NCBI GenBank assembly: GCA_964610875.1
Contig: CAZSWP010000013.1
Coordinates: 18,872-82,871, forward strand
Direction: 5' to 3'
Source of the DNA: an uncultured archaeon
Lineage (GTDB): Archaea > Asgardarchaeota > Thorarchaeia > Thorarchaeales > Thorarchaeaceae
DNA: 64,000 bases
A program made the translations under genes and the position numbers. Of the stretch, positions 3,535-16,020 are shown piece by piece; position 1 is the stretch's first letter; each line of letters starts with the position of its first letter. A model generated the notes under the pieces. The model had not been told where the DNA came from, searched no databases, and saw only the letters and a list, made by a program, of their open reading frames with translations.

Positions 3535-4785
3535 TCAATACATAAGCAGAAAGACACTATATACTAGAATTTGGCATATAGTCAAAGGAATACCAATCTT
3601 TGCGAATTCTGTGAAAGAAATTGTTTCATCAAATTTTTCTGCGTTCTGAATTATGATTACATTACTCGCTGCTCCTAGTATCAGTAAATTTCCAGCAATA
3701 GTACTTCCTGCAGCTAGAGTGACTAGTTGTATTGTAGATGCACTCGTACTGGTAAAGATAGGGAGGTAGAGAGCCACTAAAGGTACGTTTGATATGAACT
3801 GACTAAGAACTACGCTTAGGACCATTATTGCTGGGATTGATGTCAAATCAAGTGGAACCAAACTAATCATATCTTGAAACACGCCACTGTTCCATACGCT
3901 AGCCATAAGAACGAACATAGCTACAAAAAACACAAGCGTCTTCCAATCGATATTGCGGAGAATTTCAGTTCTACGACTACTTAGAAGTACTACAGGTGCA
4001 GCCCCAACTACAGCTATGTAGGTCATTCTGAAATCAAATCGAGGGAAGAAGAACAACAAAAGAATCTTCAGAATAATCATAATTAGAACCAGAAGCAATG
4101 CTAGCTGAACAATTTTCATTAGTTTCCGATCATATCCATCATTTGCAGTATCAGGTTGAATAGATTTTTTGAATTCGGATTTATATAATAAACGCAAGAA
4201 GAGAAAGGAAAGGCCCATGCATAGAAGTGTAGGAATAAAGAGGAATTGGATGAAGATAAGGAATGGATTCTCAATATTTCCTTCAGTGACAATAAGTAAG
4301 TTCTGAGGGTTTCCTATCGGACTGAGCACGCTTCCAGTAGTTACACCGATGGCTAGTGTCAGTAGTAGCATTCGAGGGGAAATATCGTGTGTCTTTGCAA
4401 GGCGTATAACCACGGGAGTACCAATTATTGCAATTGTATCATTCATTAGAATTGCTGACATAAACCCAGAAACTAAAAGAACTAGCAAAACAAGTTGATC
4501 TACACCTCTTGCTTTTCCAAAAATATTCCTGGAGAGTGATTGCAAATAACCACTTCTCACTGCTGCTTCCCCGATAATGAACATACCAAAGAGAAATATT
4601 ATGACATCCAAGTTTACAGAAATTACCGCATCAATGACGTTGATTTGACCTGTGATGAGAACAATCAGAGCTCCTATTACCATTGCTTGCCATATCTCAA
4701 CTCTGAAACGTCCAATCTTTCTGACTGCGATTAAAACAAAGACAAGGCTTAATACTAATAACGAAATAACTCCGATAGTCTGCAT
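3535..4785 (-). CDS. ArsB/NhaD/SLC13-type anion permease
   Basis: Multi-TM; MNDT, SPIGNPQNLLI, ISNVP and GAASN motifs. Confidence 0.9.
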   Translation of the reverse strand: MQTIGVISLLVLSLVFVLIAVRKIGRFRVEIWQAMVIGALIVLITGQINVIDAVISVNLDVIIFLFGMFIIGEAAVRSGYLQSLSRNIFGKARGVDQLVLLVLLVSGFMSAILMNDTIAIIGTPVVIRLAKTHDISPRMLLLTLAIGVTTGSVLSPIGNPQNLLIVTEGNIENPFLIFIQFLFIPTLLCMGLSFLFLRLLYKSEFKKSIQPDTANDGYDRKLMKIVQLALLLVLIMIILKILLLFFFPRFDFRMTYIAVVGAAPVVLLSSRRTEILRNIDWKTLVFFVAMFVLMASVWNSGVFQDMISLVPLDLTSIPAIMVLSVVLSQFISNVPLVALYLPIFTSTSASTIQLVTLAAGSTIAGNLLILGAASNVIIIQNAEKFDETISFTEFAKIGIPLTICQILVYSVFLLMY

Positions 4786-4827
4786 CTAAACTATGTGACC
4801 TCAATACATTTTGATATTCGATGACTT

Positions 4828-5079
4828 TTATCTTGCATCATATGACTTCATTAGGTAGATAACGATAGCAAATGTTTTCGTGTTTTGAAGACTATCGAAA
4901 TATCTTGACAAAACCCAAGGTATCTTTAGAACTGCAATAGTTGCAATCATCAGCAAACCTATTCCAAATAGCAACCCACCAAACAAGTACACAAAGAAAC
5001 CTATGAAAATTAAAACAATGCTGATGATCAATAAAACAAAGAGTGGATCCCTCTTCAATTCTTCAAATGAAGACTCCAT
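4828..5079 (-). CDS. Small membrane protein, possibly truncated
   Basis: Two hydrophobic segments. Confidence 0.4.
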   Translation of the reverse strand: MESSFEELKRDPLFVLLIISIVLIFIGFFVYLFGGLLFGIGLLMIATIAVLKIPWVLSRYFDSLQNTKTFAIVIYLMKSYDAR

Positions 5080-5176
5080 AAATCATCACAACCATATAGC
5101 ACTCTTCACTGGATTCTTAAAATTGTTCTCTTGAAAAGAGTTGAAGTGAACAAAATTTGGATTGTGTAGGTCCTGT

Positions 5177-5671
5177 TCATTGTGTACCAATTTTCTTCAT
5201 TAGGTCCAGAACATCTTCATCTACTACCTTCAGCTCAATCATTTTGTTTGATTCAATATCAAAGACTCTAATATTGTATTGAATTCCAGCGTCCTGATGG
5301 TCTTCTTTTATCTGGAGAAACTCAGTATGAGGTTTACCTTTGAATAATTCAAGAGAAATCTCTTCTTGGATTTCGCCGCTACGGACCTCTAAAAGTCGAG
5401 ATGTTGTGAGATAGTATTTTGTTCTTCTGATTTTAATGAAACTGTATACTGTGTATAGAATACCAATTAGCACAAAGAATACTAATCCAAATACGATAGA
5501 TGCACCATAAATACTCCCTGTAAAAATGATCACAAAAACAGATAGAAGGGGAAAGCATACTCCACAGAAAATGAACAAAAAGGGAGTACCGGCCCTTTGA
5601 TGCCAAACAATCTCTTCACCTGGTTTTAGTCCATACTCTGGTGGTTCAAATCGCTCCTTTTCCACATACAT
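5177..5671 (-). CDS. Hypothetical membrane protein (two TM plus bPH-like tail)
   Basis: L.PGEEI.W ... T.Y.LT..R pattern. Confidence 0.6.
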   Translation of the reverse strand: MYVEKERFEPPEYGLKPGEEIVWHQRAGTPFLFIFCGVCFPLLSVFVIIFTGSIYGASIVFGLVFFVLIGILYTVYSFIKIRRTKYYLTTSRLLEVRSGEIQEEISLELFKGKPHTEFLQIKEDHQDAGIQYNIRVFDIESNKMIELKVVDEDVLDLMKKIGTQ

Positions 5672-5815
5672 AATAGTGATACCTCCACTATGGGGAGTTA
5701 AATGAGGATTTGAATCTTCTTAACAACAAAACTCCTTCGGAAAATCGAGAACCCGTTGCTTTCATTGGAAAGCTTATTTTTCTTTCATAATACATGATGG
5801 TGGAGTTTCATATAG

Positions 5816-6283
5816 TTGTCAAAATTCAAAGACCTATCAAGACCAGTTATTGCATCTTTCATAACACTACTTGGAGTTATTTTTCTCCCATATGCCTATC
5901 AACAAACATGGGGACTGGGTTCTGCGAACCACATAATTCGATGGCCACTTTGGATTTTCCTCGATTCGTTCTATTTCTCAGGTTTCACACTAATTGAATT
6001 ACAAGAGTTTCTGAGTTTTACACCAGCGTGGATCATGAGGTTTTTACTTGTCTTTTGGGTCAGCAGATATTATTCTGGTAGATCCTCACGAAGACAGACA
6101 TTTGCAATAGGAATGATATCCGAGTTACCACCTCTGTTACTTTCGCTATCTGAAATCATTGCAAACAGCATGCAGCCCCCAACATTTTCTTCTGTACTAT
6201 TACCTATACCTGTACTTCTTGGCTTTGTGGTTCTACTTATCTTTCTCCTACCGTACGACCCATCCAAAGAACCTTGGAAGTGA
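5816..6283 (+). CDS. Hypothetical membrane protein
   Basis: Hydrophobic 155-aa ORF. Confidence 0.55.
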   Translation: MSKFKDLSRPVIASFITLLGVIFLPYAYQQTWGLGSANHIIRWPLWIFLDSFYFSGFTLIELQEFLSFTPAWIMRFLLVFWVSRYYSGRSSRRQTFAIGMISELPPLLLSLSEIIANSMQPPTFSSVLLPIPVLLGFVVLLIFLLPYDPSKEPWK

Positions 6284-6420
6284 ATATTCATCCTAGATTA
6301 TTTACTCTCATTTTAGTGGTAAACTGTTCAATATCATTAAAACGAATTATTGCACGAAGGTGTGGTCCAAAGTAACGAGTATTGGTAGAAAATCAAGACA
6401 AGTGAGAATATCGGTTTGAG

Positions 6421-6537
6421 AAAATGAGAGTTAGAAGGAAGGGTTTGCACCCATCCTTCTGAAACTATAGGTATACACTCTAGATACAGCGATGGATTAC
6501 TTCCGGTCCCGCTTCTTCGAACTCCTTGCGTGAAACC
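6421..6537 (-). repeat. Displaced actin 3'-end copy ([18 protein letters not shown]) plus terminator hairpin, distal copy
   Basis: Minus-strand translation of 6480-6536 equals the actin C-terminus; near-identical to 10201-10309. Confidence 0.95.
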
Positions 6538-6666
6538 TGAATCCTTCCAAAAAAGTGCGAAAGATGAAGAGAGAAATACCTAATTTCGAGTCACTCGAAT
6601 AATCTCAAGAGAATTATAAGCGGATGGTGCATTAACACAGTTAGTATATTCTGAGAGGGATATGAT

Positions 6667-7086
6667 ATGGATGTTGATGATGTTATCTCAAAGGTTCGTA
6701 GTTTCGTCAAGAAACAAGATAGTGTCATTGCAGCATATCTTTTTGGCTCACTTGCAAGAGGTACAGATAATCCAATGAGTGATATCGATATTGCATTACT
6801 ACTTACAGAAACAGAAAATGTTATTCCCAGAATTAAGGAGTTCACTGTCACACTCGCAAATATCATAGACACTTCAAATTTGGACCTCATCAGCCTCAAA
6901 CATGCAGACCTGGCTTTGAAATACAATGTCATTCGAGAGGGGATTCTTATCTATGAGAGTGATCCAGTTGAGAGGATTGCTTTTGAACGAAGGACAACCA
7001 CAGAGTATCTGGATATGCTTCCAGTATGGAGAGAGTATGATGAACATATGAAATCCAGACTTCAGGAGTATGCAGCAAGTGATTGA
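6667..7086 (+). CDS. mntA: MNT-family minimal nucleotidyltransferase antitoxin
   Basis: LFGS-x10-DID motif; overlaps the HEPN gene. Confidence 0.9.
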   Translation: MDVDDVISKVRSFVKKQDSVIAAYLFGSLARGTDNPMSDIDIALLLTETENVIPRIKEFTVTLANIIDTSNLDLISLKHADLALKYNVIREGILIYESDPVERIAFERRTTTEYLDMLPVWREYDEHMKSRLQEYAASD

Positions 7087-7492
7087 TAGTGATACAATAT
7101 ATTCTAGACTCTCTACTATTGAACAATGTATGAGAGTGATTGAAAGAACAAAGGAAAAGGGACTTCAACACTACCTCAAAGACTTGGACACCAGATTTCT
7201 GACTGAAAGAGCACTACACTTAGCCATTGAAGCGAGTATAGACATTGCTAATCATATCATTTCAAATCATGGGTTTCGCAGACCAAAAGACTATGCAGAT
7301 ATTTTTCAGATCCTTGGTGAGGAAAAAATCATTACTGAAGACTTAAGCGAGCGCCTAATTCATATGACAAGGTTTCGAACCAGATTAGTACATCTTTATT
7401 CAACGCTGGACAATGAGATTGTGTTCAGCATCTTAGAGAACGAAATATCTGATATTCTTGAATTTACAGCTGTTGTTTCAGAGATGTTGTGA
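7070..7492 (+). CDS. hepT: HEPN (DUF86) RNase toxin
   Basis: ER.LH.AIEA.IDI and R-x4-H-x-Y (FRTRLVHLY) motifs. Confidence 0.9.
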   Translation: MQQVIDSDTIYSRLSTIEQCMRVIERTKEKGLQHYLKDLDTRFLTERALHLAIEASIDIANHIISNHGFRRPKDYADIFQILGEEKIITEDLSERLIHMTRFRTRLVHLYSTLDNEIVFSILENEISDILEFTAVVSEML

Positions 7493-7538
7493 CTACACAG
7501 ATTTCTGGGTTTCTATTGTTTCCAATCAAAGTTAAAAT

Positions 7539-7663
7539 AAAATGAGATTTAGAAGGAAGGGCTTGCACCCATCCTTCTGAAACTATAGGTATACGCTCTA
7601 GATACACCGGTGGATGACCTCGGGGCCAGCCTCTTCGAACTCCTTGCGTGAAACCCACATCTT
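7539..7663 (-). repeat. Displaced actin 3'-end copy ([21 protein letters not shown]) plus terminator hairpin, middle copy
   Basis: Minus-strand 7598-7660 encodes the complete 20-aa actin exon 2 with different synonymous codons. Confidence 0.95.
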
Positions 7664-8573
7664 ATCCTTTCTTCTTCAATATCACAAACCCAATGATTAC
7701 TATAGCTACTATTACTATACCGATGCCAAGGATTACAATAGTATTGTCCACGAGTGGATATGCAGGGGGAACTGCAGATAGTAATTGTATCAGTTCTCCA
7801 GTCTGGGATATTGAAGCTACAAGGGTCGATTGTATTTTGACATATTCCCAATCATTTGGATTTGCTGTTGATGACACTCTTACAGTTAGATTCGCATAAG
7901 TAAGGAACTCCCAATGCGGTTCAATCAACATTGAATCTGCTTGTTGATTTGTGAAAATCGAATGAACAGGACTATTCCCATAATAGAACGAATAGCCAGT
8001 TTCGTCATATGACCATAGCACGAACTTCAGAGCTGAATAGCCTTCTGAAATTGGAACTTGGAGATTAGCTAATTCCAAATCACGTTCTTCGGTTTCATTA
8101 CACAGAGTGGAGATTGCATTCTTCAATGAGGCTACATAAGAATATTCAGTGATATTATCAATTGAAGTGATTGAAATAATGTTCATAATATTCGTTGAAT
8201 CATATGTTAAATTATATGTACATCGAATTGTGGAGTGCATATAGTGACTTTCATTCAAAGCCATAACTATGACTTGATCACCATAAGCAGTTCGATCAAT
8301 AAAAAGTAATGAATCATTATACCGACTCATCAGATTCCTTACAGTTGTATTTGATAATAGACCTGAGTGAAACTCTAACGCTTGATTCCAAACATCTTCA
8401 CCAAGAAGTAGCACTTCCTGGTCTCCAACATCTAGTATGAAATCGTTTGTACCGTCAGAAAGTATTGTACTTCCCCTGACCATAGTAAAACCTTCAAACG
8501 ATATACATCTAGGTATTGAGTAGCCAGATATCATTAGAAGTAATAGAATTCCAATAATGTATGATTTCTTCAT
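7662..8573 (-). CDS. Secreted, membrane-anchored hypothetical protein
   Basis: N-terminal signal peptide; C-terminal TM followed by KKKG; AT-rich. Confidence 0.7.
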   Translation of the reverse strand: MKKSYIIGILLLLMISGYSIPRCISFEGFTMVRGSTILSDGTNDFILDVGDQEVLLLGEDVWNQALEFHSGLLSNTTVRNLMSRYNDSLLFIDRTAYGDQVIVMALNESHYMHSTIRCTYNLTYDSTNIMNIISITSIDNITEYSYVASLKNAISTLCNETEERDLELANLQVPISEGYSALKFVLWSYDETGYSFYYGNSPVHSIFTNQQADSMLIEPHWEFLTYANLTVRVSSTANPNDWEYVKIQSTLVASISQTGELIQLLSAVPPAYPLVDNTIVILGIGIVIVAIVIIGFVILKKKG

Positions 8574-8585
8574 ATAATCATCTCC

Positions 8586-9908
8586 TCAGTAATTGTTAGG
8601 ACCATCATAGTCTGCAAAGTAATACCAATCCAAATGATAATGCAATTTTCCATTTACAGTGTTACCATCGTAAGGTCCCCAATCCCCTTTTCCATCGTCG
8701 CCACAAGAATATATTCTCAACCAATCGAATGTGACTAAATAATTGGCGGAATAGTACCATGGTGCATTGAATAAATCCATTGTTGCATCACAGTGAATCC
8801 AAGTTCCACTTACATAGGTTTCACACCAAGCGTGACTGAAAGTACCACCCAACCAATTCCCATCATATCCTATCATAAACCTACAAGGAATATTCAGAAC
8901 TCTGAGAAATGAACACATAACAACAGCAAACTCGTCACATACACCCCTCCAATTGTAGTTGTACGTAAACATATCAGCATTAGTGGTTTCATGCGTATCA
9001 CTGTTCATATAATATGTAATCAGACTATTAACAGCAGACGTTAGTACCTCACTAGAATATTCAGGATAGCTAATACAGTTATCTACTAAATACGCTGCTT
9101 GGTATATAATAGGCCATTCTGTAGGCCTAAATAATGCACGTGTGATTGGAATACCAAATCCATCTCCTGAATTACCCTCCCAATAGTAATTAGGATTTTG
9201 TGAAAGAGAACTCATATCGTCATTTGGGGGCAGTCCACCATATGTCTGAAGGTCTGATAAACCATATCGAGAAATGAATTCGTATCCCCATGTTTGACTT
9301 CTGTATACACTATCATAGCGTAGAGTTCCCGGAGCTGTTCTTAGACCATCTGGTTCAATAGAATCTGGAGTAACCCCATCATAATAATATGCTTTTCCAG
9401 ACACTGATACTTGAGCCCTTTTTAAACCGACAGTCGCGGTTGAGGGCAAATAGCAAGAGAGTGTATTTACACTACTGTAGCCAGATGCTCTTACTGACTT
9501 GGTTTTATAGACTTCTCGAATTTCCGAAGGGCCAGGACAATTGTCATAGCCTTCGAATACTAGGGTCACATCTGCGTAAATGTATCCTGAAAGATATACC
9601 GTAAATTGGACATTGAAATTCTCAGTTCTTGTCCATAAGCTGGGAATGGACGCGGATATTTGGAAACTACGTCCAAAGCTGTTAATAGCATCCCCTTCAC
9701 TATGTTGATTACTTGTTTTTTCCGAGTAGAAAAAACCATTCTGATCCTGCTTAACTTTAGGTATATGTTTAATCGAAGGAATTGATTTTCCCAACTCATT
9801 TGATTCAACAAGTGATTTAGGATTTTTCGGAGGCATAGTGATTGGTGATAATAGCAACGTACCACCTATCAACATGAAAATCAATATTGACTTAGCTCTA
9901 TTTTCCAT
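8586..9908 (-). CDS. Secreted transglutaminase-like (papain-fold) protein
   Basis: GVCDEFA...LR.L.IP.R, HAW.E and W..CDAT triad motifs; signal peptide. Confidence 0.85.
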   Translation of the reverse strand: MENRAKSILIFMLIGGTLLLSPITMPPKNPKSLVESNELGKSIPSIKHIPKVKQDQNGFFYSEKTSNQHSEGDAINSFGRSFQISASIPSLWTRTENFNVQFTVYLSGYIYADVTLVFEGYDNCPGPSEIREVYKTKSVRASGYSSVNTLSCYLPSTATVGLKRAQVSVSGKAYYYDGVTPDSIEPDGLRTAPGTLRYDSVYRSQTWGYEFISRYGLSDLQTYGGLPPNDDMSSLSQNPNYYWEGNSGDGFGIPITRALFRPTEWPIIYQAAYLVDNCISYPEYSSEVLTSAVNSLITYYMNSDTHETTNADMFTYNYNWRGVCDEFAVVMCSFLRVLNIPCRFMIGYDGNWLGGTFSHAWCETYVSGTWIHCDATMDLFNAPWYYSANYLVTFDWLRIYSCGDDGKGDWGPYDGNTVNGKLHYHLDWYYFADYDGPNNY

Positions 9909-10200
9909 TTGTTTTTTCCCACTACTACAATTCTAGACATTGTGTAGTAAGGAAAAAACTCGATTTTGGCTATTAAAGAGTTCACTCTTTCAAAATAGTC
10001 TTTTGAATGCAAATCTGTCATTCTTACGACTTACTTTTTATTCAGATTCTATTTTCTCTTATAATGTTACATCAGGAATATATGTTACTAAACATTTGGC
10101 CAGATGCTTTGTTTTACTCAGGTATGGCAATTTGAAAATCTTGCAATATATTGATTCAAGATGAATGTATGAAAAGGAAGGATTACTATTTTTTCTTAGA

Positions 10201-10309
10201 AGAAAATGAGAGTTAGAAGGAAGGGTTTGCACCCATCCTTCTGAAACTATAGGTATACGCTCTAGATACAGCGATGGATTACTTCCGGTCCCGCTTCTTC
10301 GAACTCCTT
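10201..10309 (-). repeat. Displaced actin 3'-end copy ([15 protein letters not shown]) plus terminator hairpin, proximal copy
   Basis: Minus-strand 10262-10309 encodes the last 15 actin residues. Confidence 0.95.
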
Positions 10310-10354
10310 TGATAAAATCCATTAGAAGAGATTGAATATTTCGGAAATACAATT

Positions 10355-13105
10355 TCAGTAGTATTCTTCATTTTTGATTTCCAGATATTCTCTAGTAGAA
10401 GTTGGTAGCTGAACAATATAACTGGATGGCATGTGTTCTTTTATGATTCTCATCAATTGTGAGAATTCTAAAGGATCCATTTCTTCATCAACTTTCATTT
10501 TCAAAAACTGCAATAAAGAATCCAATAACTGATCATCTATAAAAAAGGGTTCAATAGATAACATAATTTCGATTTCTTCATTTTTTGTTTTTGATGACTG
10601 TAGTTTTGAAATATATTCATCTCTTTTTGAAAGGATGGCATCTCGTACTTTTCGTGATTGATAGAGATGGGGAAAAGATACCAATTGCTTTATTGGGTTG
10701 GTATGCTTTATTGGTTTGAGAATCAAACTCTCAACATTGTCGATTACCCTCTTATCTCTACTAGCATGTTTTAAGGAACATTCAAAGGATTTGTGAATAA
10801 TCCAATCAGTGGCATCAACAACGACATTTTCAAATACGATTTTCTTGAATATTTCTCTAGAATGTCCCGAGAAATGAAATCTATGGTCTATTGTCCCTAT
10901 TACATCCAATGGGTTTTCTGAGAGTATTATTTTTTCAAAGAGTGCCTTCAGGATGGAGGGATGTTCAGTAAGAATTCTAAATTTCGAGATTGTTTCTACC
11001 ACTCGCCAAAAGTTATCCTCATCTGTAAACATAGCAATGATATCTTCTATTCTTTCTACAATAATCTCTATAAGCTCGTATTTTCTCTGAAATTTGGGAA
11101 TAAACGATATTGCATTTAAAATGGATAAATCAATATGACTGTTTTTCAAATACTTAATGAAAACCATATTTAGAAGGTTAACTGTTGTGTTATCTTTTGT
11201 TCTAACAAGATTCTCTATTTCATATGTCTTGATTCGTTCCGAATTATCTCGAAGTGAAAGAGAAATTTCAAGTAGTCTTTTGCTAATGGTAGGTTCATTT
11301 TGAGTAGTAATCAATCTTTCTGGACGGTGAGATGTATTTTTAGTTATTTCTTCCAATTGTTTAGCTATAACTTTACCAGCTTGAAGATGGTCTTTCAAAT
11401 AGTCACACGCCCTAATTTGCCGCTCAATTGAATCAAGCGTATACCTCTCTCGAATTAATTTAATTTTAGATGGGAATTGCTCAATGAAGCCATCAATGCG
11501 ATTCATTAGCCATTGGTTATCATAGAAGTCTGGTACAGAAACTACTTCTCTGATAAATGAGATGAACTCAACAATATTATCTTTATATACAACTTGCTCT
11601 TTTTTTAGTTTCAGTTTGAGAACCAATTCTCTACGAAAACATACATGGCGCATTACCTGACATATTTTGGATAATGTCCAGTACATCGGATATTTCCTGA
11701 AGGAATTAACAACCAAACTGACTACATCCTCCTTTTTTTCATTGGGAGCAACAGAATAGAGAATATTCGCATATTTTGCTAGGCCCCTCCCTTCATGATA
11801 CCTATCAATCTGGCACTTGAGTTTTTCATAACTTTTTTTTGATTCAGAAAGTATTCCTATATAATATGGGCAAGCATTTACATATTCAAGTAAAGCCTCA
11901 GGGTTGACAGAAGTTGTTATGGCTTTAAGTAACTCATCTTGAGTCAATGTTGCGGATGTGTTTCCTGGAATCAAATGAAGAGCAGTTTCAACAATCATTT
12001 GCTCGAAGCTGCTACTAGGAAGATGTCTCCTATTAGGAGAGGCTTTCGAATCTCTTTTTGTAGCATAAAAAAAGCCATCTAGGAAATTAGATAATCCAGC
12101 TGCTGTAATAACATCAGGTCCTTCGGACTGTTCTGCAACTTTCCATAGAAGCAGAATAGATGCGGCACGTCTTTGCCAGATTTTACTTTTCAGTCCATTT
12201 CTAATTCTTTGTATCATAGACGGATTCTCTATGACCATCTGAACAATCTCATGTATAGCTTCATCTGTAGGCTCATATTTTTCACTATTATCTGTAAGAT
12301 CAAATCCATACAATGTAAATTTCTTTGCAATCCATCTGAGAATTCGCCACACTGGAATGTCTATTTTATGTTTGATTGCATAGAGAATTAGTTCTGCGTG
12401 AATCTTATTCGAATTGACTATCTCGATTACTGCATTTCTGATTTTGGGACTAACATAATACTGGGCTAGATAACAAGCGCCAGCTGATATTTCTGTATCA
12501 GAGTGTTTTATGCAGCGAAGCAATTCATCTGGACTAATTGGTATCGACAGATTGTCAACCCATTTTTTCATAGCCACATTATTTCCATGGAACGGGTCTC
12601 TACAACCATATCTCATTATTTCTTCTATAGCTTTGCTAGTATTACGTTTTGATTTTAGTAAGATCACCTCTGAACACAAATCATAGTCATCACCCATATT
12701 TGACACTGAGTAGTAATCACCTGGATCCTCACCTAAGCCTTCTAAAACTGCAATGGTTCCTTCGTTCAGTCCACCCCATTCTTTGTATAGATAGTTTTGT
12801 AATTTAGGAATCACTTCTTTACCCATAGATATTATTCCATTTACAATTCTATCATCAACACAGCTGCCACAATCCCACTTTCTATGAATCCAGTACAACT
12901 CTTTCACAAGTTTGTCAAAGGCATCTAATCCTTGAAGTTGAACAATAGCTTCTATAGCAAGTTCTACCAAGTCACTATCTCCTGCCCATGGACTAACCCA
13001 ATCCAGAAGAGATAGAAAACTCTCCATTTTCGAAACGATTTCAGTTCTATTATATCTGATTGCTATTCTGACAGCAGACTCCAAAGCTTCATAGCTTGTA
13101 TCCAC
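10355..13105 (-). CDS. Large helical (HEAT-like) hypothetical protein
   Basis: 916-aa AT-rich ORF; in-frame TAA at 13109-13111 just upstream. Confidence 0.65.
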   Translation of the reverse strand: MDTSYEALESAVRIAIRYNRTEIVSKMESFLSLLDWVSPWAGDSDLVELAIEAIVQLQGLDAFDKLVKELYWIHRKWDCGSCVDDRIVNGIISMGKEVIPKLQNYLYKEWGGLNEGTIAVLEGLGEDPGDYYSVSNMGDDYDLCSEVILLKSKRNTSKAIEEIMRYGCRDPFHGNNVAMKKWVDNLSIPISPDELLRCIKHSDTEISAGACYLAQYYVSPKIRNAVIEIVNSNKIHAELILYAIKHKIDIPVWRILRWIAKKFTLYGFDLTDNSEKYEPTDEAIHEIVQMVIENPSMIQRIRNGLKSKIWQRRAASILLLWKVAEQSEGPDVITAAGLSNFLDGFFYATKRDSKASPNRRHLPSSSFEQMIVETALHLIPGNTSATLTQDELLKAITTSVNPEALLEYVNACPYYIGILSESKKSYEKLKCQIDRYHEGRGLAKYANILYSVAPNEKKEDVVSLVVNSFRKYPMYWTLSKICQVMRHVCFRRELVLKLKLKKEQVVYKDNIVEFISFIREVVSVPDFYDNQWLMNRIDGFIEQFPSKIKLIRERYTLDSIERQIRACDYLKDHLQAGKVIAKQLEEITKNTSHRPERLITTQNEPTISKRLLEISLSLRDNSERIKTYEIENLVRTKDNTTVNLLNMVFIKYLKNSHIDLSILNAISFIPKFQRKYELIEIIVERIEDIIAMFTDEDNFWRVVETISKFRILTEHPSILKALFEKIILSENPLDVIGTIDHRFHFSGHSREIFKKIVFENVVVDATDWIIHKSFECSLKHASRDKRVIDNVESLILKPIKHTNPIKQLVSFPHLYQSRKVRDAILSKRDEYISKLQSSKTKNEEIEIMLSIEPFFIDDQLLDSLLQFLKMKVDEEMDPLEFSQLMRIIKEHMPSSYIVQLPTSTREYLEIKNEEYY

Positions 13106-13541
13106 TGTTTATAGAAGTGGAATAATGTTCAAATCTGATTCAATTGTCAATTATCCAAGAAGAGAGAGTCTTGTCTTGCACCACTGAACCTACACCTTTT
13201 CTTATGGTGTGAAAAATAAAATAGAAATAATCTGAGCGATGGTTGTAGACATCACCCAGTGACCAAATATTCTGATTGCTTTTCTCTTGCTACCCCTAAC
13301 CCGTATCTGTCCTATTCCAAACACCTAACTCCATTCCACTCCCATGAGAATGGAAGACATAATCTCATATGAAATGATTGATTTCTTTGAATACAGAAAC
13401 CAGAACTCTTTTCTACTACCACTTAGCTAAACATTATTGGTTAGGAGTAAGATTCTGGTGTTCCTGGCGTAACAGGGCCACACCTTTAGTCCTTGGTAGG
13501 AGATTGCATCCCTTGCTTACTCCCAACAATAGCACAAGTGG

Positions 13542-14072
13542 GTGAGGTCTATGTCCATTGAAGGAATTGATGATAGAGGTTTACTGGTCGAGCCATTAGA
13601 GCAGAGCTGGTTCAAGAAATTCATTACAGTCTGGTCAAATCCGAGCTTTGGACAGGTCTATGTTAACAAGAATAGCATGACTGTAAACATCTATCTCGGA
13701 TTCAGGATGCTTCAGGGAAAGGTTCTCATCTGGTCCGCAAAGCGAAATATCAGATGGGTAACAAAGAAATGGTTCAAGCAAGGACATCAAATGCTTCTTT
13801 ACAAAAACAAGTCCGTTGTAAAAGCCAATCTGATAGTTGAAACTCCAGCAGGAGAGATCATTCCAGATGAGGAGTTCTACAAGATAAGTGATAGAGATTA
13901 TAGCATCCTTCGTGAGTATTTCAATAGGAAAGAGGTCAGAGATGAACTGAAAAGATTGGCTGAACAGATTGAGAGTAAGATATACCTGTTCAGGGTTGGA
14001 ATGCCAGTCGAGTTCATTCTTCCCATTATCATTCCAATCATTGTAGTGCTACTGATTATTTTATTTTATTAG
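13542..14072 (+). CDS. Hypothetical protein with C-terminal TM
   Basis: 176-aa ORF; GGTGAGG RBS-like motif near the start. Confidence 0.6.
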   Translation: MRSMSIEGIDDRGLLVEPLEQSWFKKFITVWSNPSFGQVYVNKNSMTVNIYLGFRMLQGKVLIWSAKRNIRWVTKKWFKQGHQMLLYKNKSVVKANLIVETPAGEIIPDEEFYKISDRDYSILREYFNRKEVRDELKRLAEQIESKIYLFRVGMPVEFILPIIIPIIVVLLIILFY

Positions 14073-14288
14073 TGATACACTAATATCCTGAATGCATCAA
14101 TTTGTACAAAAAGATACAAGACATTATATTGTTTCCGAGTTAATCAATGGTGAGAGGGCAATCTCGTTGGTCTTTCCATATTTTGAAACAAACCTTCCTA
14201 TGTGTTTCATCAAGGCAATATTAATTGAACATCTAGGAGTCTGGGATGGTATAGTAGAATCGAAAAAAGAGTCCATCTGACCTTTTTG

Positions 14289-14477
14289 CTACTCCACCGT
14301 AATCTGCACCGTCACACTCCCATCCTTCGACGGAATCAACACCATCCGCGTTTCAATGACCGCCCCAGTCCTCACCGCTCGCTCATGCAACGGCTTCGGC
14401 ACGGTCAGGACTTCCTGATTACCGAGCGTGAACACGCTCATCACAAAGCTCTTCGTGTTCTCCTTGTGTCGTCCCAT
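14289..14477 (-). CDS. Small protein, possibly AbrB-like fold
   Basis: 62 aa, GC-rich, GGAG RBS; 'LTVPK.L' motif reminiscent of AbrB/MazE. Confidence 0.45.
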   Translation of the reverse strand: MGRHKENTKSFVMSVFTLGNQEVLTVPKPLHERAVRTGAVIETRMVLIPSKDGSVTVQITVE

Positions 14478-14794
14478 GTTCGTCGATAGCTCCTAGACTA
14501 TACAGGAATCTCCCAGTCAGCAGTGAACCGATGTCCCTGTGCAATCAGGTTCCGTAACCACTCTAATAAGAACCGATTAAGTGTAGACTTGTTCTTGATG
14601 TCAACTGTGTCGGGCGTAGGATAGGAATCGCCAAGCTGGAGTGCCTTGGCAGACTATTTAAGCCCCACACGAATTACTAAGTAATAAAGAGGTCTCACTG
14701 CACGGTCATGTGAATCGCCAAGTTCTATGCGCTGTGTGGTGGGGCCACCTTCCAGCTATCCATAGAATACTCTTTCTTTTCAAAAAGGCAATGA

Positions 14795-14835
14795 GAAAAA
14801 TAGATTGTGAAGGTGAGCCTTGCAGCTCTACCTTC
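14795..14835 (-). terminator. Hairpin plus U-run after the actin stop
   Basis: GAAGGTAGAGC-TGCAAG-GCTCACCTTC then ...TATTTTT; homologous hairpin in each displaced copy. Confidence 0.6.
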
Positions 14836-14850
14836 TAAACTAACAACCCG

Positions 14851-16020
14851 TTAGATACATCGGTGAATTACTTCAGGTCCAGCTTCCTCAAACTCTTTCC
14901 GAGATACCCACATTTACCACGCAGCAACGGAAATCGGTGCCGCTTTTTGGAACGTTTTCAGCGAAGCTAGAATGCTTCCGCCAATCCAGACAGAGTATTG
15001 TCTCTCGGGTGGAGCGATGATGCGTACCTCGATGTTCTCTGGGACTAGTTCGGTGATCTCCTTATGGAGTCGTTCCTTGAGTCCTGGGAACATGGTTGAA
15101 CCGCCTGATAGTACAATGTTGGCGTACAGGTCACGTCGCAAGTCTACATCGCAAGCCTTGATCGACTCGACAATGTGTTCATCCAGTGGGATTGAGTCTA
15201 GACCTATTGCGCTTGGGTTGAAGAACAGCTCGGGTGCTTGGAACCTCTCTGCACCAACAGTGATTACTTCACCGTCTGGTAGCATGTAGGGTTTGTCAAC
15301 ACCAGCCTTGTCGGCCACTGTCCTCTCGCGCTCTGGGTCAAGAGCAACGTAACAGAGTTTCTCTTTTACATCACGGACAATCTCTTTCTCTGCACCGCTC
15401 ACGAATGAGTAACCTCTCTGTCTGAGAAGTCTGCGCAGGTACTCGGTGATGTCACGACCAGCAAGGTCGATTCGTTTGATTGCGTGGTTGATTGAGAAAC
15501 CTTCGTACACAGGTACAATGTGTGTGACACCGTCACCAGAGTCGATGACGAGACCTGTGGTTCTTCCGGATGCGTATAGTGATAGCACAGCCTGTGTTGC
15601 GACATAGACGGCAGGTATGCCGAAGTTGTCGAACATGACAGATGCCATGCGTTCACGATTCTCTCTTGGGTTGTATGGTGCTTCAGTGAGAAGCACGGGG
15701 TTCTCGCTGGGATCAACTTTCAAGTCGTTGTAGAAAGTGTAACTCCAGATTTTTTCGATTGCGTCCCAGTCGTCAATTACACCGTGTGTAATTGGGTAGA
15801 CGAGTCTGAGCACACCACGGAGGTTGATTGCCTCTTCACCAATGTAGTAATCCCTTGTGTAGTGATCGACGTCCGTCATAATGGACTCGTATCGTGGATA
15901 TCCAATTAGTGTAGGCCATACACTTCGTGGCTGATCTTCACCAGCGTAACCGTTCTTACTCAGGCCAGTACCATTGTCAATGACAATTGGTTTACTGCCC
16001 ATGTAATCTTCCTCAGCCAT
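14851..16020 (-). CDS. Asgard actin (Lokiactin-type), 379 aa after removal of a 30-nt intron; exons 16020-14945 and 14914-14851
   Basis: [32 protein letters not shown] and [12 protein letters not shown] motifs; the conserved tail [20 protein letters not shown] resumes in frame after the insertion. Confidence 0.95.
14915..14944 (-). other. Candidate 30-nt BHB-type intron in actin mRNA
   Basis: Contains an in-frame TAA; internal stem GCGGCA/UGCUGC; central helix CCAA/GUGG flanked by 3-nt bulges AAA and UAA; removal gives FQK-MWV. Confidence 0.8.

Follow-up and report, generated by a model that had tools for sequence, protein, structure and literature searches.

Displaced actin 3' ends delimit arrays of accessory genes in Thorarchaeota and probably record serial gene-end replacement

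The actin gene and its repeated 3' end

A 64,000-nt stretch of DNA from an uncultured archaeon of the family Thorarchaeaceae (Asgardarchaeota; GenBank assembly GCA_964610875.1, contig CAZSWP010000013.1, positions 18,872 to 82,871 of the forward strand), which as a whole is referred to as the window, was analyzed for its actin gene and the array of accessory genes behind it. Actin is a signature eukaryote-like gene of Asgard archaea and is among their most conserved genes. The array in the window is made of gene cassettes separated by displaced copies of the actin 3' end, and it very probably records serial replacement of that end at one site, later shuffled by homologous recombination. The actin gene is on the minus strand and spans 16020-14851, while its apparent open reading frame (ORF), 14914-16020, ends early at an in-frame stop. 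Its product is 90-96% identical to the actins of 24 family genomes. The features of the gene and of its repeated end are as follows.

14945-16020, minus strand: actin exon 1, from Met1 to the first two bases of the Lys codon in ..KTFQK (Pfam Actin, E 1.4e-122)
14915-14944, minus strand: bulge-helix-bulge (BHB) micro-intron of 30 nt, containing the in-frame TAA that closes the apparent ORF
14796-14914, minus strand: resident unit u0, consisting of actin exon 2, the stop codon (14851-14853), a spacer, a hairpin (14809-14835) and a T-run (14796-14800) (nhmmer E 3e-26)
10195-10321, minus strand: displaced unit R3, with a 15-codon tail starting KEFEE, a hairpin and a T-run; 7 silent and 0 replacement differences from u0
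7519-7663, minus strand: displaced unit R2, the longest, starting at AAGATGTGG (K-M-W) with a 21-residue tail; 9 silent and 0 replacement differences from u0
6405-6539, minus strand: displaced unit R1, the last before the flank, with a tail starting VSRKEFEE; 99% identical to R3 over 109 nt

Repeats were sought across the whole 3.75-Mb genome by repeat search, BLAST, nhmmer, and a profile of 50 units. The repeat search gave a single family of three direct repeats (6414-6539, 7532-7657, and 10196-10321), 86-87% identical to the reference copy. Genome-wide, only R1, R2, R3 and the resident actin end match, with E values of 1e-24 to 1e-60, which excludes chance. These searches bear out an earlier note on this DNA, which had described three direct repeats encoding the last 15-21 actin residues, the stop codon, and a hairpin. 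The same note had placed the array at 6421-14913. The array is indeed there, but position 14913 marks only the apparent stop, and the true tail, located behind the 30-nt BHB intron, makes a fourth unit.

All units share one layout, namely a tail of 15-21 codons, the stop codon, a spacer with AGTTT, a GC-rich hairpin based on GAAGG/CCTTC, and a T-run. The stop of each repeat is followed by AGTTTCAGAAGG..CCTTCT and then the T-run, after which similarity ends abruptly, so that the 3' edge is sharp in every unit. R2 is distinguished from R1 and R3 by a 27-nt recoded patch in a unit otherwise of the R1/R3 type. Scanning the genome for this type of hairpin (regular expression plus RNAfold) gave six matches, four of which are the actin units. 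Hence, the GAAGG..CCTTC hairpin is nearly confined to these units, and it is actin's own 3' element rather than a general terminator. RNAalifold, run on a MAFFT alignment of the 50 units, returned no pairs, as stems of unequal length were misaligned.

A micro-intron in the last actin codons

Comparison with 29 relatives located a 30-nt insert between TFQ(K) and MW in the window genome and in G012, G023, G022, G014, and G019. These six carriers belong to six genera, and congeners of three of them are without the insert. Besides the window (14915-14944, minus strand), the micro-intron occurs at loci L014, L015, L016, L023, and L037. The insert folds into a helix, a 3-nt bulge, a 4-bp helix, and another 3-nt bulge. 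The bulges read AAU and UAA, and pairing in the outer helix is imperfect. In the central 4-bp helix, CCAG pairs with CUGG; G022 has UCAA/UUGA instead, which amounts to a double compensatory change, and the window has CCAA/GUGG, which leaves one mismatch. The 9-bp inner helix in G019 is rebuilt from different bases, again in a compensatory manner. With a cut behind the second base in each bulge, exactly 30 nt are lost and the protein again reads F-Q-K-M-W. Judged by its fold and by frame restoration, the insert is an archaeal BHB intron whose splicing is predicted.

As the true tail, the stop, the hairpin, and the T-run stand directly behind the intron, the actin end has not been lost and the units number four, not three. 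The stop inside the intron leads gene callers to truncate actin. Two of the six intron-bearing genomes have arrays, compared with ca. 45% overall, numbers too small to judge whether the intron shields the site. A metagenome contig (L081:1519-2718, plus strand) has a further 30-nt in-frame insert near the actin N-terminus (AK-ASRTSLSAAL-PIVIDNG), and its actin is split into ORFs of 111 and 255 aa. This insert suggests that additional actin micro-introns are present in some lineages.

A common limit and fast divergence of the tails

We inspected 59 displaced tails, and none of them extends beyond AAGATGTGG, which covers the codons K-M-W. Four independent cassettes with unrelated content begin exactly there, at R2 of the window and at L043, L045, and L100. 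The limit is 2 nt from the insertion point of the intron. The 5' edges of the units are ragged, yet only downstream of this limit. At L067 and L105, the first ca. 70 codons of a peptidase gene are fused to a tail minus its first 4 codons, while L081 has the whole gene followed by a unit; the shorter stub at L067/L105 is a secondary deletion product. The earlier note had read the differing 5' breakpoints (K-M-W, V-S-R, K-E-F) as unlike a fixed att core. The raggedness was seen correctly, but a fixed point does exist in the form of the hard limit shared by four independent cassettes, and one of the stubs results from later deletion.

Displaced and resident tails differ by 118 silent and 68 replacement changes over all arrays, and by 23 silent and 0 replacement changes in the window. 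This excess at silent sites indicates that the displaced tails once ended a working actin and decayed only afterwards. The divergence of working tails was measured in 24 close genome pairs, whose third positions differ by less than 10% over 270 codons. Third-position divergence reached 0.158 and 0.175 in the two 10-codon tail windows and averaged ca. 0.06 in 27 windows of the body. Both tail windows rank highest of the 29, and divergence in the tail is about 2.7 times that in the actin body, with the reservation that the pairs are not independent and the tail is only 20 codons long. Hence, the tail appears to have been exchanged more often than the gene.

The hairpins and the order of units tell of displacement as well. 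In G049, the second unit has the very hairpin that is resident in the congeners G022 and G047, and the resident hairpin of G049 is of another type. This pattern indicates that the old end was displaced downstream by the DNA that brought the new end. In nine of the 12 arrays with at least three units, the distal units score below the proximal ones.

The units bear traces of recombination. Between L060 and L093, a stretch of 5.2 kb that begins inside actin and breaks off inside a hairpin is 99.7% identical; past this breakpoint, the next 0.8-3.7 kb are unrelated, and the flanks have 85% identity. The permease cassettes of L060 and L070 are 98.6% identical, while the actins are 92.7% identical. 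A nitroreductase cassette shared by G059 and G054 keeps its cargo and its cargo/unit junctions (86% identity over a 1.1-kb match), with the hairpins on both sides swapped. Taken from these alignments, host recombination evidently acts at the units.

Recurrence of the array in relatives

Extra copies of the tail, sought with a degenerate pattern, are present in 23 of 86 family genomes. Those on the same contig as actin are always on the actin strand and 0.34-5.2 kb apart; some others are on short separate contigs. With the unit profile, two to four co-oriented units were found downstream of actin at 34 of 76 Thorarchaeota species-representative loci, one of which is in a closed chromosome, and two to seven units in 24 of 47 metagenome contigs. 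The surroundings of the array are conserved. Upstream of actin are a PadR-like regulator and an RNase III-like gene, and beyond the array are a 211-aa membrane protein and a permease. In between, the content varies even within one genus. The proposal of a recurrent hotspot is therefore upheld, and the earlier note's own refutation, an absence of variability downstream of actin in relatives, fails. Its term integron-like holds for the architecture, but not for an integrase IntI, an attI site, or co-oriented promoterless cassettes.

The cargo includes MNT-HEPN and DUF433/PIN-like pairs, GNAT acetyltransferases, S-adenosylmethionine (SAM) methyltransferases, an APH-type kinase, beta-lactamase-fold proteins, deaminases, a radical-SAM/HD protein, a nitroreductase, a prolyl oligopeptidase, leucine-rich repeat and tetratricopeptide repeat proteins, and many small membrane proteins. 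Cassette genes are on both strands, and many converge on actin. In one genome (G045, L047:4832-5953, plus strand), the first cassette is a strongly divergent second actin paralogue of 373 aa. The last codons and hairpin of this paralogue nearly match those of the resident actin, as if its end had recombined with a displaced tail. Outside Thorarchaeota, contigs from other Asgard families, such as those of G140, G181, G146, G133, and G176, each carry several co-oriented matches to the codon pattern for MWV(T/S)KKEY. A search of the published literature found no report of this actin locus.

Cassettes and flank in the window

The earlier note had listed the blocks between the repeats as an MNT-HEPN pair, a transglutaminase with a surface protein, and a 916-aa protein with small ORFs, and this content was recovered as follows.

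10322-14795, mixed strands: cassette C, with a 916-aa ORF at 10355-13105 (minus), a 176-aa ORF at 13542-14072 (plus), and frameshifted ORF debris at 14289-14653 (minus)
7664-10194, minus strand: cassette B, with a transglutaminase-like 440-aa gene at 8586-9908 (Transglut_core, E 1.7e-13) and the gene of a 303-aa membrane-anchored protein at 7662-8573
6540-7518, plus strand: cassette A, a toxin-antitoxin pair of an MNT nucleotidyltransferase at 6667-7086 (Polbeta, E 1.5e-19) and a HEPN/HepT RNase at 7070-7492 (HepT-like, E 1.9e-30)
3535-6283, mixed strands: flank past the array, with a 155-aa membrane protein at 5816-6283 (plus), small membrane ORFs, and a 416-aa permease at 3535-4785 (minus)

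The ORFs of cassette C, including the debris, have no family match. The debris in the first slot (14289-14653) gave no Pfam family of note and no LAGLIDADG signal. A 240-nt piece of it (14283-14522) recurs with 87% identity at the end of a short contig of the same genome (G000:C102:3830-4061). It could encode a peptide of 67-76 aa, which has no family match. In cassette B, the stop codon of the 303-aa protein adjoins R2. A homologue of cassette A sits behind a unit in G049, and the permease of the flank has homologues past the arrays of G067 and G059. Two cassette proteins of the window were sought in public assemblies by exact match, and neither was found.

Two other repeat-bearing loci were noticed in the genome of the window. 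One is a second, unrelated array (G000:C63, whole contig in reverse, joined to G000:C44:1-3600; L118, L119; the two contigs overlap in a repeat), with about seven copies of a structured repeat of 75-146 nt, spaced 0.8-8 kb apart and each terminating in a T-run. Its cargo includes PIN and HicB-like toxin-antitoxin genes. Copies of this repeat are also present in 15 other family genomes, and it has no Rfam match and no tRNA match by ARAGORN. At the other locus, a tRNA 3' end plus 70 nt is duplicated 4 kb downstream with 97% identity (G000:C3:139115-139210 and 143159-143254), which is the classical signature of an integrated element.

Proposed mechanism

The best explanation of the array, to which we give a probability of roughly 0.55, is serial replacement of the actin 3' end arising from a targeted break at Q|K-M-W and repaired by host recombination, a reading built on analogy with known systems. 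A double-strand break, or an equivalent site-specific event, would occur between the Gln and the Lys-Met-Trp codons (..CAG|AAGATGTGG..), and the candidate cleavage target in actin is the sequence centered on TTCCAGAAGATGTGGGT. The break would be repaired from the DNA of a related archaeon carrying its own actin tail, its terminator hairpin, and the genes behind them. The left end of the import would be set by recombination inside the highly conserved actin gene. The right end would be the recipient's tail from the break onward, often nibbled, and joined either by annealing to an older tail or by end joining. Actin would thereby keep a full tail and a terminator, the old ones would shift downstream, and the imported genes would stay in between. 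Repetition would build the stack, with the newest cassette beside actin. The units would then serve as portable homology, through which ordinary recombination could move cassettes and hairpins between species.

Such a model would account for the hard limit with its ragged stubs, the silent-site pattern, the fast tail, the tail/hairpin junctions, the lack of an integrase, and the position of the intron. Specifically, the BHB intron is 2 nt from the common limit, which is where an intron-type homing site would be expected.

Several observations weigh against a targeted break. Pfam scans of ca. 45 cargo ORFs detected no nuclease, and no integrase or transposase either. Among the 86 family genomes, matches to LAGLIDADG_3 never adjoin actin, and LAGLIDADG_2 gave a single weak sub-threshold match (G009) that is not beside actin; LAGLIDADG_1, sought in the genome of the window only, gave nothing near actin. 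The cargo of the first slot is unrelated from genome to genome. In favor of the model, a candidate does exist in the Asgard family f12, where actin-tail arrays in three genomes have at their head a conserved gene of 377-431 aa, tail-to-tail with actin:

L204:3115-4248, minus strand; L203:4214-5422, plus strand; L202:8041-9336, plus strand: f12 tail-to-tail gene, with a CxxC element, a helix-turn-helix-like region, and two LAGLIDADG-like motifs

The two motifs are LIAIMLITDG and LAMSTEGS, and it is on them that the gene is a candidate LAGLIDADG protein. The gene has no Pfam match and, by profile search, no sequence match in the PDB, and an AlphaFold2 model from the 3-sequence alignment was unusable, with a mean predicted local distance difference test score of 41. 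The 86 Thorarchaeota genomes contain no homologue of it. Taken together with the unrelated first-slot cargo and the lack of LAGLIDADG matches near actin, this means that the motor is missing in Thorarchaeota arrays. Moreover, at most one base separates the resident tail from the first displaced one in ca. 40% of arrays, so that a tail recoded for resistance is not evident there. Finally, most cassettes are complete genes, often on the opposite strand, which is unexpected for random pieces of donor flank.

Alternative explanations

Recombination without any targeted break would need one old duplication of the actin end, after which the array would grow by unequal crossing-over, by looped-out circles with Campbell-type re-insertion, and by double crossovers via actin and a unit; the site would be a hotspot merely by reason of actin being so conserved that DNA of other species recombines there. 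The breakpoints inside units, the mosaic units, and the hairpins swapped around unchanged cargo are what such a process should leave, the identical tails within the arrays of many genomes are what gene conversion would give, and the lack of any recombinase or nuclease gene is in its favor. Left unexplained, however, are the dozens of unrelated cargos that abut the T-run on one side and start at or below AAGATGTGG on the other, and the coincidence of the tail limit with the intron site. Neither shared remnants of earlier cargo nor tandem cassette duplicates were seen, although unequal crossing-over would yield the latter, and a self-comparison of the window's genome showed that its other equally conserved genes have no such array. 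We consider this account, including its view of the hotspot, rather unlikely. Classical site-specific integration, which we find less probable still, would involve small mobilizable elements with the actin end as attP and an integrase acting in trans or since lost, comparable with tRNA-gene islands, tycheposon islands, e14 at icd, and the accretion of cis-mobilizable elements (CIME) at fda. It would explain why each insert lies between direct repeats of the target 3' end, with the gene restored, why identity runs from one point to the functional gene end as in tRNA-targeting elements, and why the newest insert is nearest the gene. Tycheposon islands likewise leave scattered partial tRNA copies and cargo, and a 4-kb insert of the classical kind, bordered by a tRNA 3' end, is present in the genome of the window itself. 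Against it stands the absence of an integrase gene or remnant from ca. 45 arrays with more than 100 cassettes, which extends the earlier note's remark that no recombinase is visible. The genome of the window has one PF00589 match, on another contig. Among 21 array-bearing genomes, 12 have no match to PF00589 (tyrosine recombinases including the Xer type) anywhere, four of them being 91-97% complete; G047, G048, G008, G071, and G020 are among these 12, together with seven more. The remaining array genomes have no PF00589 match inside any array. Just one actin contig (G003) bears an integrase, located 11.5 kb beyond the array's final unit and amid housekeeping genes. The viral contigs carrying an actin 3' fragment that the earlier note had thought worth seeking did not turn up, as the degenerate tail pattern had 0 matches in viral contigs. 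No tail pair is more than 5.2 kb apart in any genome, and no full-size element was seen.

A stitching of strain variants downstream of actin at a shared repeat during assembly, the remaining alternative, is very improbable. Many contigs of relatives do stop at a unit or close to one, the Logan unitigs are interrupted by the repeats, and R1 and R3 share exact stretches of ca. 60 nt. On the other side, more than 50 independent assemblies, made with different assemblers in different studies, show the same architecture, the closed chromosome among them, and the units of one array mostly differ enough for long k-mers. In two runs of one microbial-mat study, every repeat/cassette junction of the window is covered by Logan unitigs at an even depth of ca. 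5, equal to the depth of actin, which applies to all window cassettes; these short unitigs show junctions, not cassette order. The mat sample also contains a relative ca. 35 times more abundant (depth 184), whose actin is intron-less and has an R1-like tail, unlike the working tail of the window (14948-15024, 6480-6537). Four narrower ideas were rejected. A Xer/dif-type site has no inverted-repeat core common across genera to support it, and many genomes are without a tyrosine recombinase. Hairpin transposition of the IS200/IS605 type does not duplicate its target. Copies of cDNA from the 3' end of actin mRNA would fit the sharp T-run end and the ragged 5' end, but fail as a general account, since copies are found only behind actin and much cargo is antisense. 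A 140-nt target-site duplication is contradicted by the hairpins of neighboring units, which often differ, and we know of no enzyme that makes such a duplication.

Comparison with known systems

The closest parallel to serial actin-end replacement is provided by the WHO elements of the yeasts Torulaspora and Lachancea, which home into the aldolase gene FBA1 and replace its 3' end (Coughlan et al. 2020, PMC7282813). The leftover 3' fragments of FBA1 start near the cut site, the newest element is beside the gene, and the 3' end of FBA1 is far more divergent than the rest of the gene (PMC7282813). The actin arrays resemble this system in many aspects. The host is a highly conserved housekeeping gene, and each event replaces its 3' end and displaces the old end downstream. 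The displaced fragments are co-oriented, start at roughly one position, and decay with distance from the gene, and in the intact gene the 3' end is much more divergent than the remainder. The clusters are polymorphic (between strains in the case of WHO), and the duplicated 3' fragment corresponds to a second homology arm. There are differences, too. WHO clusters consist of endonuclease genes and pseudogenes, whereas the actin arrays contain ordinary accessory genes and no endonuclease gene was found in them. The duplicated piece is ca. 140 nt in the actin arrays versus ca. 400 nt in WHO. The host is an archaeon rather than a yeast undergoing meiosis, and cleavage at actin is proposed by analogy. 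Mobile endonuclease ORFs of fungal mitochondria also insert a replacement C-terminal piece at a conserved gene end and leave the original behind. They are single insertions with an endonuclease ORF, unlike the long cargo stacks of the actin arrays.

Chromosomal integrons, with IntI, attI, and attC cassettes, have reportedly been found in Archaea as well. The actin arrays are integron-like in having cassettes of one to a few genes between repeats of ca. 60-140 nt, each with an imperfect hairpin whose base is conserved and whose center varies, and in their cargo rich in toxin-antitoxin pairs and modifying enzymes. They differ in that they have neither IntI nor attI, and the repeat is the coding tail of the host gene plus its terminator. 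Their cassettes are in both orientations with their own promoters, rather than co-oriented and promoterless. A GTTRRRY/RYYYAAC pair was not apparent in the units, as judged by eye. Serial 3'-end replacement thus fits the anatomy better than an integron does.

In the tycheposon islands of Prochlorococcus, the end of a tRNA gene seeds an island in which partial copies are scattered and cargo is left (bioRxiv 10.1101/2020.12.28.424599). The actin arrays share the seeding by a conserved gene end, the partial end copies inside, and the proximal position of the newest elements. Tycheposon islands carry integrases or fragments of them and target tRNA and tmRNA genes, whereas the target here is protein-coding and no integrase was found. 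At Rhs/CdiA loci, a case attributed to Jackson et al. 2009, recombination in a conserved stretch is said to install a new 3' end with linked genes and to leave orphan 3' ends downstream, with no integrase involved. The Rhs/CdiA 3' ends reportedly encode different toxins, so that the protein changes, whereas the actin tails all encode the same peptide.

Significance

The last 21 codons of actin are a hotspot in about half of Thorarchaeota species, where accessory and defense-type genes accumulate and are swapped between species, and the same pattern is found in at least one other Asgard family. In practical terms, the intron stop makes actin look truncated, and the repeats break assemblies at this locus. 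By its coincidence with the hotspot, the BHB micro-intron links the gain of an intron in an archaeal protein-coding gene to that very site. We tentatively entertain a wider view, which we hold to be doubtful as a whole, in which Asgard archaea collect genes by homing-like break and repair at one actin site, importing DNA along with a new actin tail. The process in Thorarchaeota would have become independent of an element-borne nuclease or would have been so from the start, the actin end would act as a cassette-joining site, attC-like in effect, and the BHB intron might be another product of this conflict, serving as a shield of the target or being a remnant of an intron-borne nuclease. If targeted replacement of the actin end holds true, the homing-type gene-end replacement of yeast nuclei and fungal mitochondria would extend to archaea, where such a process would build integron-like stacks of ordinary genes.

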